Virus record (IMG/VR): IMGVR_UViG_2695420478_000009
Source: a virus
Taxonomy: Duplodnaviria; Heunggongvirae; Uroviricota; Caudoviricetes
Strand: one strand, 5' to 3'
Length of the DNA stretch: 4,112 bases
Positions 1,096 to 4,112 of this stretch are shown piece after piece (the stretch's first letter is position 1; each line of letters starts with the position of its first letter). Position numbers and translations under genes: made by a program. The notes below the pieces were generated by a model that searched no databases, was not told the origin of the DNA, and saw nothing but the letters and a program-made list of their open reading frames with translations.

Positions 1096-1461
1096 TCACA
1101 GTCCGATGATATCGTCTGCCCTGCCATGACCTCCGGACACCTCCGGCAGCGTCGGGTCCGGCATACCACTCGCCGTTTCACTGACTGACTTCTGGCGATG
1201 GCATTCGGTACAGAGCGTCCAGAGATTCGTCTCCTCATTACCACCACCGAACTGAAGTGCAATGCGGTGATCGAGTTCACTGTCACAGAGGTCAACCACA
1301 CGACCACAGAGACAGCACTGCCCGGCATCCCTGAGCCAGATATGACGCTTGAGGGAAACACGTGCACTGCCACTGACACGACGCTGTTCCCCCTTCAGAA
1401 TATTCACCCGTCGGGTGTTCAGAGTTTTGATTCTGCTCTGGAGTGTACGAAGCTCAGCCAT
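1096..1461 (-). CDS. Phage HNH endonuclease, 121 aa (copy 2, variant C-terminal tail)
   Basis: The first 92 residues are identical to copy 1 and the nucleotide differences there are all synonymous. The C-terminal 29 residues carry 5 replacements. Confidence 0.85.
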   Translation of the reverse strand: MAELRTLQSRIKTLNTRRVNILKGEQRRVSGSARVSLKRHIWLRDAGQCCLCGRVVDLCDSELDHRIALQFGGGNEETNLWTLCTECHRQKSVSETASGMPDPTLPEVSGGHGRADDIIGL

Positions 1462-2311: not shown

Positions 2312-2779
2312 TTATTTCAGGCACTGAGTGCGGATATAGTCCTGTGCCCCTTCCAGTTGCTTCTGCATTGTCATCAACCGCTCTCTGAGGGTGAAATAAT
2401 CCCGTTCAGCGGTGTCTGCCAGTCGGGGGCCGGTTGCATTATCCATTCCGGAGGTGCCGGTGGCTTCACGCACGGTACCGGAGCAGGTGGCGTTGATCCG
2501 CAGGCGCTTACGACCAGCGGCAACATCAGCACGCAGAGTTTCATTTTCAGCTCTCGCATCGGCTAATTCCCTCGAGTATTTTGCATCGAGCGCAGCAACA
2601 TCGCGCTGGCGCACCTGCATATCAGTAATGGTTGCATTTGCCAGCTCCAGCTCACTGACTTTTTTATCGCGCTGCTCTTTGTAGGTTATGGCGTTATCAC
2701 GGTAATGATTCAGCCCCAGACTAAGCGCACCACAGGCCACCAGCAGGGCAATGATGACCACGCACAGTACGCGGTTCAT
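2312..2779 (-). CDS. Rz: Rz i-spanin, 155 aa
   Basis: The protein from MNRVLCVVIIALLVACG... has an N-terminal TM segment followed by NHYRDNAITYK...DVAALDAKY...RLADTAERDYFTLRERL.TMQKQLEG, closely matching lambda Rz. Start taken at ATG 2779 because the track's 2803 start is a TTG. Confidence 0.9.
   Translation of the reverse strand: MNRVLCVVIIALLVACGALSLGLNHYRDNAITYKEQRDKKVSELELANATITDMQVRQRDVAALDAKYSRELADARAENETLRADVAAGRKRLRINATCSGTVREATGTSGMDNATGPRLADTAERDYFTLRERLMTMQKQLEGAQDYIRTQCLK
2374..2559 (-). CDS. Rz1: Rz1 o-spanin lipoprotein, embedded in the +1 frame of Rz
   Basis: MRELKMKLCVLMLPLVVSACGSTPP...CVKPPAPPEWIMQPAPDWQTPLNGIISPSESG has a lipobox (VSAC) and a proline-rich body, matching lambda Rz1. 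Confidence 0.85.
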   Translation of the reverse strand: MRELKMKLCVLMLPLVVSACGSTPPAPVPCVKPPAPPEWIMQPAPDWQTPLNGIISPSESG

Positions 2780-2780
2780 T

Positions 2781-2882
2781 TCACCACCAGCGTATCTGAC
2801 CAATGAAATAACCGGAAGCCATAATCACAAACACCAGCCAGATAAGGATGAACTTCCAGGTGGATAATTTTTCAGCCATCAT
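2781..2882 (-). CDS. Candidate 33-aa single-pass membrane protein (MMAEKLSTWKFILIWLVFVIMASGYFIGQIRWW) between the endolysin and Rz
   Basis: GGGAG SD 6 nt upstream of ATG 2882. Its TGA stop lies 1 nt before the Rz ATG (TGAAATG). The longer 72-aa version in the track starts at a GTG inside the terminator hairpin. Confidence 0.35.
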   Translation of the reverse strand: MMAEKLSTWKFILIWLVFVIMASGYFIGQIRWW

Positions 2883-2954
2883 TCGAATCTCCCGAATCAG
2901 TTTGCTAAAATCAAACACACTTTCTCCTTTGACTTTTCCGGAGTCAGGAAACAC

Positions 2955-3076: not shown

Positions 3077-3610
3077 TTATCTGTCAATTCCCCAGCACGC
3101 CAGCGCGCTCTCCTGGTCACGACGGGATACCTGACCGTAACAGTTGTTTGAACGAATACGGCAGTCTCTGCCACCGTCCTTAATCCACCAGCGAATCGCT
3201 TCGCAGGCACCTTTTCGATCACCTGCATTAATTCGTCTGTAAAACGTAGACGGGAAACACTTACCGGGACCAATGTTGTACGGACAGAATGACGCAATAC
3301 CCGCTTTCTGGGGTTCGGTCAGTGGCACTCTGATGTTTTTCGCCACCCATGCCAGCGCCTTATCACGTTCAATGGCGTTAACCTGGTCGCATTTTTCCTT
3401 CGACAACTTCATGCCCGGGAGGACAGGCTTACCATCCACCCGGGTGGCTCCACGGCAGATGGTCCAGATACCCGCACCATCACGGTATGCCGTGGTGTGG
3501 TTACCTTCCTTTTCATCCAGAAACTGGTCGAGGATTTCAGGCGCAGGCGCACCTGCGGCAATCAGCGCCAGAACGGCAGCCGACAGGCCGTATTTGATTT
3601 TGGTGTTCAT
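3077..3610 (-). CDS. SAR endolysin, 177 aa (T4-lysozyme-like muramidase, RrrQ-type)
   Basis: Gly/Ala-rich N-terminal signal-anchor (YGLSAAVLALIAAGAPAP) followed by a catalytic triad with E-x8-D-x5-T spacing (EGNHTTAYRDGAGIWT). The 177-aa length and sequence match my recollection of the Qin lysozyme. Confidence 0.9.
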   Translation of the reverse strand: MNTKIKYGLSAAVLALIAAGAPAPEILDQFLDEKEGNHTTAYRDGAGIWTICRGATRVDGKPVLPGMKLSKEKCDQVNAIERDKALAWVAKNIRVPLTEPQKAGIASFCPYNIGPGKCFPSTFYRRINAGDRKGACEAIRWWIKDGGRDCRIRSNNCYGQVSRRDQESALACWGIDR

Positions 3611-3652: not shown

Positions 3653-3985
3653 TTAAGTCTTCAGAGAACCAGTAATTATTCCCGGTAGTTTTCCTCTGTA
3701 GATTATCAACACATCCTGCGCCTCTAAAATGATGGGCCGCTTTTCCGGCAACGGACCATCCCCTTCACATAACCCGGCAGCAACATCCATGAAAAACTGC
3801 TTCGCCTGCTTTTTCGCCTCAGCTTCGTAAAACTCCAGCGTGGCACCTTCAGTACGGTCAAGACTAATCGCCACATCTGGCAACAACAGTGACGGATACC
3901 CACCAATTTCCAGTGCCACAGTAACAGTAATCTTATCCGGGTAATTATTTATCCCTTTAACAACCAGTTCGTATTTTTTCTTCAT
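3653..3985 (-). CDS. ydfR: YdfR-like DUF1327 protein, 110 aa, unknown function, sitting between holin and endolysin
   Basis: The ATG lies 4 nt after the holin stop with a GGGAGAG SD. The protein has no TM segment or signal peptide. The holin-ydfR-lysozyme order matches the Qin prophage as I recall it. Confidence 0.7.
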   Translation of the reverse strand: MKKKYELVVKGINNYPDKITVTVALEIGGYPSLLLPDVAISLDRTEGATLEFYEAEAKKQAKQFFMDVAAGLCEGDGPLPEKRPIILEAQDVLIIYRGKLPGIITGSLKT

Positions 3986-3989
3986 CGCT

Positions 3990-4112
3990 TTACTCTCCCC
4001 GGGCAGCCTTGCGACGGTCCTCTCTGATTTTGAAATACAGGTTAGTCAGATACGTCAGCAGGCCAAACAGCAGACTCCCCAGCACACCTATCGCCACCCA
4101 CTGGGACGGAGA
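3990..4112 (-). CDS. S21-type pinholin (class II holin), C-terminal 40 codons only; the 5' end lies beyond the window
   Basis: Hand translation gives [40 protein letters not shown], a TM segment plus charged tail that matches the phage 21 S / EssD C-terminus as I remember it. Confidence 0.7.

Follow-up and report, generated by a model that had tools for sequence, protein, structure and literature searches.

A YdfR-family (DUF1327) gene as an optional, moron-like insert between holin and lysozyme in a lambdoid lysis cassette

The open reading frame at positions 3653-3985 of the window (the whole stretch of 4,112 nucleotides analysed here, in which this gene lies on the minus strand) genuinely belongs to the YdfR/DUF1327 family of Escherichia lambdoid prophages and is found in its usual place. 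It is optional and foreign in composition, a moron-like insert between the holin and lysozyme genes. Its product is a small acidic cytoplasmic protein consisting of a constrained domain (residues 1-74) and a loosely constrained, probably disordered tail (residues 75-110). We infer that this protein is not a core lysis protein and stands outside the lysis machinery. [quoted passage not shown] That ydfR is a common annotated accessory gene with an E. coli K-12 namesake is already known; what the present analysis adds is the division of the protein into core and tail, the usurpation of exactly the holin-coupled ribosome site, the origin of the window allele by deletion and the standalone homologues found in tail gene regions.

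Family membership is shown by a match of residues 1-100 to PF07041 (DUF1327; E-value 2.2e-45, 153.3 bits against a cut-off of 25), by a match to phrog_406 (E-value 1.4e-61) and by the name 'YdfR family protein' that PGAP gives to the gene in 99.9% identical genomes, all of which agrees with the ydfR-like DUF1327 gene of 110 codons described in an earlier note made from the letters of the sequence. An NCBIfam search with the protein gave no matches and a PDB sequence search came back empty. The same note had called the product soluble and free of transmembrane segments and signal peptide, and this holds as well, the best 19-residue Kyte-Doolittle mean being 1.18 and the N-terminus not being signal-like. 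Its view of the interruption as a departure from the canonical lysis cassette has to be given up, as the Qin cryptic prophage of K-12 has the same arrangement (essQ, a 4-nt gap, ydfR (b1555, P76160), rrrQ and rzpQ/rzoQ) and 3159 of 5426 complete E. coli genomes contain detectable ydfR DNA, at up to 8 copies each.

The right half of the window is a lambdoid lysis cassette on the minus strand. It begins with the 3' part of an S21-type class II holin gene (3990-4112; the last 40 codons and a TAA stop), which is cut by the end of the window. This fragment matches PF04971 (P21 holin S; E-value 1.9e-18) and the holin family phrog_9876, and the complete gene in locus L001 codes for 68 amino acids and is labelled 'class II holin family protein'. 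It is followed by the YdfR-family gene (an ATG start, 110 codons and a TAA stop), a 42-nt spacer and the gene of an RrrQ-type lysozyme of 177 amino acids (3077-3610; PF00959, E-value 1.4e-24), 89% identical to K-12 RrrQ. The N-terminus of this lysozyme (YGLSAAVLALIAAGAPAP) is Gly/Ala-rich, hydrophobic and signal-anchor-release-like, and its catalytic motif is E35-x8-D-x5-T. An S21-family holin together with a SAR-type lysozyme marks the two, by their sequences, as a pinholin/SAR-endolysin pair, which is how the earlier note had named these neighbours, and pinhole formation and SAR release would be expected of them from homology. Further downstream, a second accessory small ORF (2781-2918, minus strand; 45 amino acids with one transmembrane segment) is placed between lysozyme and Rz. 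It matches phrog_6632 (E-value 1.8e-29), had no match in a Pfam search, has a GC content of 42% and corresponds to the hypothetical protein WP_000459342.1 in L001; its maximal open reading frame reaches 2999 and its stop lies 1 nt ahead of the Rz ATG. In other cassettes, an Ant-like gene holds this position between lysozyme and Rz. The Rz i-spanin gene (2312-2779, minus strand; PF03245, E-value 3e-50) comes next, with the Rz1 o-spanin gene (2374-2559; PF06085, E-value 1.5e-19) embedded within it.

The upstream junction of ydfR in the window reads GGGGAGAG-TAA-AGCG-ATG. The holin stop codon lies at 3992-3990 and the ydfR start codon at 3985, leaving a gap of 4 nt, and a GGAGAG Shine-Dalgarno sequence (3998-3993) within the final holin codons serves the next gene, so that the short gap and good ribosome site reported from the letters alone are both present. 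On the other side, ydfR ends with a TAA at 3655-3653 and the lysozyme ATG follows at 3610, behind the 42-nt spacer (3652-3611). The lysozyme leader (GAUAAAUAUCC) contains no GGAG, GAGG or AGGA, and therefore no Shine-Dalgarno sequence, again in line with what had been noted; an in-frame TAA lies 9 nt upstream of the lysozyme ATG.

A bulged 8-bp hairpin had also been proposed in this spacer, and it did not survive. What can form is a 5-bp CAGGG/CCCUG stem (3646-3621) with a weak inner part, at -7.6 kcal/mol, with a z-score of -1.28 (20 of 200 shuffles fold equally well) that becomes 0.07 when 86 nt of context are included. All spacer variants keep the AU-rich leader GAUAAAUAUCC but not the hairpin, and the sole substitutions seen in the latter are transitions to G-U wobble pairs. 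The shuffles, the absence of the hairpin from other spacers and an Rfam search of the window that found nothing rule it out as a regulatory element. Upstream of ydfR, no promoter-like sequence was found, site counts being at chance level. An internal lysozyme promoter within ydfR was rejected as well: there is one 9-of-12 match (3702-3675), and here too the counts are at chance level.

The optional nature of ydfR is best seen in phage PA5, in which the same holin gene is directly followed by that of the same lysozyme. There the junction is GGGGAGAG-TAA-GCTG-ATG, the ATG being that of the lysozyme, and PA5 thus reads ...GGGGAGAGTAAGCTGATG into lysozyme where the window reads ...GGGGAGAGTAAAGCGATG into ydfR. 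In a three-way alignment the difference is a clean indel bounded by the ATG codons of ydfR and the lysozyme. As the lysozyme ATG of PA5 stands at the holin-coupled site, ydfR holds the slot and the ribosome site that are those of the lysozyme in ydfR-less cassettes. In all ydfR-positive cassettes, the lysozyme has the same AU-rich leader devoid of a Shine-Dalgarno sequence, whatever the sequence upstream of it. The junction itself (holin stop, 4 nt, ATG) is essentially invariant among 91 surveyed loci, and the downstream gene always belongs to the same lysozyme family. The 3' side of the gene is plastic in these loci: the protein ranges from 89 to 329 amino acids (forms of 103, 110, 114, 176-183 and 268-329 amino acids were seen), and the gene is separated from the lysozyme by -4, 42, 50 (most often) or 233-404 nt. 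Fusions of holin and YdfR (PF04971 plus PF07041, 173-187 amino acids; P0011, P0074, P0090 and P0093) are rare; they apparently arise from 1-nt indels in the 4-nt junction, and errors of sequencing or assembly may lie behind them.

The 1.8-kb cassette of the window is 99.9% identical to several E. coli chromosomes, and at least 80% of it is present in 1814 of the 5426 complete E. coli genomes. The family is narrow, with 92 members in a profile search of 1.84 billion representative proteins, and in one-genome-per-species data it is essentially confined to Escherichia and Shigella. Of the records in the phage collection, 427 contain the holin family, about 374 the lysozyme (at 80% identity or more) and 101 DUF1327, the last two numbers ruling out an obligatory linkage of YdfR to the 177-aa lysozyme. 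The holin and lysozyme families are found without ydfR in about three quarters of the phage records. DUF1327 is present in 41 of 47 Stx1a records and 15 of 17 Stx2c records as against 2 of 124 Stx2a records, a contrast that is probably a phage-lineage effect.

The base composition of ydfR (GC 45%, GC3 47%) departs from that of holin, lysozyme and Rz (GC 54-56%, GC3 57-66%). Like the lambdoid morons bor, lom and nanS-p, it is an optional gene lying between conserved late genes and unlike its flanks in composition, and the PA5 indel shows the presence and absence between collinear phages that is typical of such elements. Classic morons come with a promoter and a terminator of their own, and lysogens express them. 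In contrast, ydfR has neither and is translationally coupled to the holin, 4 nt away. Of the possibilities listed from the sequence at the outset (lysis-timing factor, endolysin or holin regulator, moron), the moron is the one favoured by the clean presence/absence, by the GC content and by remote homologues in tail regions. These homologues are standalone proteins of 72-76 amino acids that end where the core domain ends. Where their context is recoverable they lie outside lysis cassettes, among lambda-like tail genes, either after tail gene I or between M and L.

The core DUF1327 domain (codons 1-74; 3764-3985, minus strand) was modelled by AF2 with a diverse alignment at a pLDDT of 91.2 and a pTM of 0.78. 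In the predicted fold, three antiparallel strands form a sheet, after which comes one long helix (beta1, 5-14; beta2, 18-27; beta3, 37-43; alpha, 50-73). A fold search had been proposed together with structure prediction; Foldseek against PDB and BFVD returned nothing significant. The window protein has the beta-beta-beta-alpha core of about 72 amino acids that characterizes the family, along with its conserved positions Y5 and Y53-E54, which are invariant or near-invariant among 22 diverse members. The core has a pI of 5.1 in the window and is acidic in every homologue examined (pI 4.5-5.2). A double-stranded RNA-binding domain (dsRBD; alpha-beta-beta-beta-alpha with basic RNA-contact patches) was considered and rejected, the first helix being missing and the domain acidic. 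Between the two main allele classes, the core has a dS of 1.7-2.1, a dN of 0.41-0.43 and a dN/dS of 0.20-0.24, values that point clearly to purifying selection.

The C-terminal tail (codons 75-110, GDGPLPEKRPIILEAQDVLIIYRGKLPGIITGSLKT; 3656-3763, minus strand) is mosaic and predicted to be disordered, with a pLDDT below 50 in the full-length model. Between the same allele classes its dS is 0.19-0.24 and its dN/dS 0.5-0.6. Given this low dS, the near-invariance of the tail reflects recent recombinational spread and not strong constraint; strong constraint at the protein level is ruled out by the low dS and the dN/dS. The tail is joined to a different N-terminus in P0153, and long forms carry an extra helical C-terminal module. 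The window allele is the 114-aa form minus 20 nt between two CTGAAGACT repeats: it ends in ...GSLKT where the longer form ends in ...GSLKTPPLA, and its spacer measures 42 nt instead of 50 nt. The 110-aa form accounts for 5 of the 91 loci (the window included) and the 114-aa form for 66. The 114-aa allele of Stx1a/Stx2c prophages, which lies in the same cassette, is 95-99% identical to the window protein over 110 residues. Fusion forms of 268-329 amino acids consist of the DUF1327 core, the tail and a large C-terminal region ending in ...PAYWFHPGLTYLKGRI (L014, 1161-2150; L089, 3001-3807; L100, 2501-3307, which is orf5 of phage 86). One relative, P0034, has a KilAC/ANT domain (PF03374).

K-12 YdfR belongs to the same Pfam family and occupies the same place 4 nt after an S21-type holin. 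Residues 1-74 of the two proteins align without gaps at 47% identity, the window core belonging to the other, more divergent allele class. The tail of K-12 YdfR (residues 75-103) is unrelated to that of the window protein, and the K-12 ydfR stop codon overlaps the lysozyme start (ATGA) where the window has its 42-nt spacer.

The one functional study that we found in the literature on DUF1327, the YdfR family, essQ/rrrQ and pinholin cassettes concerns the K-12 protein (RNA Biol 2026, PMC13232886). The earlier note had held the function of the family to be unknown, which has to be brought up to date: binding of K-12 YdfR 1-72 to RNase E/G has now been reported. A genomic two-hybrid screen recovered residues 1-72 three times, and in bacterial two-hybrid assays RNase G, RNase E 1-597 and full-length RNase E each produced a signal with this fragment, while full-length T25-YdfR gave one with RNase E 1-597 only (PMC13232886). 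Strep-YdfR co-purified Rne1-598-FLAG together with DNase-resistant nucleic acid, although a contaminant as the source of the RNA could not be excluded by the authors (PMC13232886). Overexpression of K-12 YdfR was not toxic and changed few transcripts, and K-12 ydfR is essentially silent under standard growth (PMC13232886).

The RNase E-interacting region of K-12 YdfR (residues 1-72) coincides with the conserved core domain described above. RapZ, like K-12 YdfR, is classed as an RNase E N-terminal-domain binding protein. There is precedent for phage-encoded modulators of RNase E in Dip of phiKZ (PMC4980113). As the interacting region is the conserved core, and as phages are known to target RNase E, binding to RNase E/G is the best-supported mechanism. 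In this cassette, ydfR has taken over both the 4-nt coupling site and the Shine-Dalgarno sequence within the holin gene, and the lysozyme is left with an AU-rich leader lacking such a sequence. Being coupled to the holin, ydfR would be made together with it from the late transcript. The scenario we propose is that the YdfR-family protein would act by binding a host protein, the best candidate being the catalytic N-terminal half of RNase E (and RNase G), and could in this way modulate RNA processing or decay in late phage development, the target RNA possibly being the long late transcript itself. Several points count against this reading. Identity between the window core and the K-12 domain that was tested is only 47%, and the beta2-beta3 loop of the window core is completely different; the effects reported in the paper are weak; such an acidic domain is unlikely to bind RNA well by itself; and the strict holin-adjacent position in Escherichia could reflect a link to lysis.

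T4 Srd and T7 gp0.7 bind RNase E and alter RNA decay. The mode of action proposed for the YdfR family, a small phage protein binding RNase E, would be shared with these two and with Dip/gp37 of phiKZ (PMC4980113). No sequence or fold relationship was detected between any of the three and the YdfR family, however, and the part of RNase E that is bound differs, being the C-terminal scaffold for Dip and the N-terminal half for K-12 YdfR. Dip, Srd and gp0.7 are also products of early genes of virulent phages, while ydfR is a late gene of temperate ones.

If the RNase E lead holds, the YdfR-family protein would be the first modulator of the RNase E catalytic domain from a temperate coliphage, and late-gene and Shiga-toxin output could be affected, the gene being carried by over half of the complete E. 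coli genomes and by most Stx1a and Stx2c phages. A wider generalization, in which YdfR proteins are a widespread family of temperate-phage late modulators of the RNase E/G catalytic domain that tune late-gene or toxin expression, is a long shot. Were it true, co-translation with the holin would let control of mRNA decay balance the expression of lysis, virion and toxin genes (the last in Stx1a and Stx2c phages), and the convergent partner ORFs described below could be cognate regulators.

The position of ydfR would also be accounted for if its product were a regulator of lysis timing, that is, a cytoplasmic partner of the C-terminal tail of the pinholin or of the cytoplasmic N-terminus of the membrane-tethered SAR lysozyme that, made in a fixed ratio to the holin, delays or sharpens triggering in the manner of T4 RIII. 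We consider this unlikely. Escherichia ydfR does always lie between holin and lysozyme, with the 4-nt coupled junction kept, and in the supplementary lists of PMC3879167 (cited by PMC13232886) the K-12 ydfR deletion is positive in an envelope-integrity (CPRG) screen, but this Keio deletion could owe its phenotype to polarity on the lysozyme gene downstream. T4 RIII offers a likeness in that it is a small, soluble cytoplasmic antiholin cofactor and RNA-decay modulator, tied both to holin control and to an endoribonuclease pathway (PMC9409239); it differs in having no homology to YdfR and in belonging to a T/RI lysis-inhibition partner system without counterpart here. Most phage records, including almost all Stx2a phages, use the same holin and lysozyme families without ydfR, and a dedicated timing or endolysin-regulator role, as had been suggested from the sequence, is therefore unlikely to be essential. 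The holin has a dual-start antiholin motif of its own (MYQMEK... in P0074), distant homologues of the core occur in tail regions and overexpression of K-12 YdfR had no effect on growth (PMC13232886). Nor does the protein resemble antiholins of the S21-71, lambda S107 or P1 LydB type, as it has no membrane segment and is encoded by a separate ORF in another frame.

Equally doubtful is a role in lysogenic conversion, anti-defence or exclusion, in which the protein would be a small acidic inhibitor directed not at RNase E but at some other target in the host or in a competing phage. Its moron-like composition and patchy distribution, its small size and acidity, its presence in up to 8 copies per genome and the frequent pairing of variants and remote homologues with a convergent ORF of 80-100 amino acids would all suit such a factor. 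However, PADLOC gave 0 families at E-values up to 0.1, K-12 ydfR is essentially unexpressed under standard growth (PMC13232886), and neither a promoter nor a terminator could be found for the gene itself, which is coupled to a holin that must stay silent in lysogens.

More doubtful still is a purely cis-acting or neutral insert whose protein matters little and which persists by moving the lysozyme off the strong holin-coupled site (with less or uncoupled synthesis) or by hitch-hiking, for although the lysozyme leader is devoid of a Shine-Dalgarno sequence in all ydfR-positive cassettes, the holin-embedded one is used in ydfR-less cassettes and the 3' part of ydfR is highly plastic in length and in its gap to the lysozyme (-4 to 404 nt), the core is under purifying selection (dN/dS of 0.2 across a saturated dS of about 2) and is kept as a standalone gene in unrelated contexts.

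Wherever the lysozyme is not close behind, DUF1327 is followed by a convergent ORF of 79-104 amino acids (for example L003, 4311-4589; L004, 4500-4766; L100, 3317-3631; also L091-L093 and L096-L098). The remote standalone homologues in tail regions adjoin convergent ORFs as well; the window has no such ORF. These ORFs fall into at least 6 unrelated sequence families. Homology among them was looked for and not detected: comparison revealed no mutual similarity (hhalign probability 1.4%), and they have no Pfam match.

Outside the lysis cassette, the window contains an AT-rich stretch (1790-2100) with a small hydrophobic ORF on the minus strand (1821-1961), which corresponds to a 46-aa hypothetical protein in L001. 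It also contains a tandem direct repeat (1-790 and 823-1610). The repeat period is 822-824 nt, the two copies are 94-98% identical, and just one copy is present in the nearest complete E. coli genomes. An HNH endonuclease ORF (272-637 and 1096-1461, minus strand) is found in both copies, as is a perfect 22-nt palindrome, GCCAGTTAACATGTTAACTGGC (160-181 and 982-1003). The first copy truncates a DUF3950/YnfO-like ORF that is intact at 1503-1688.
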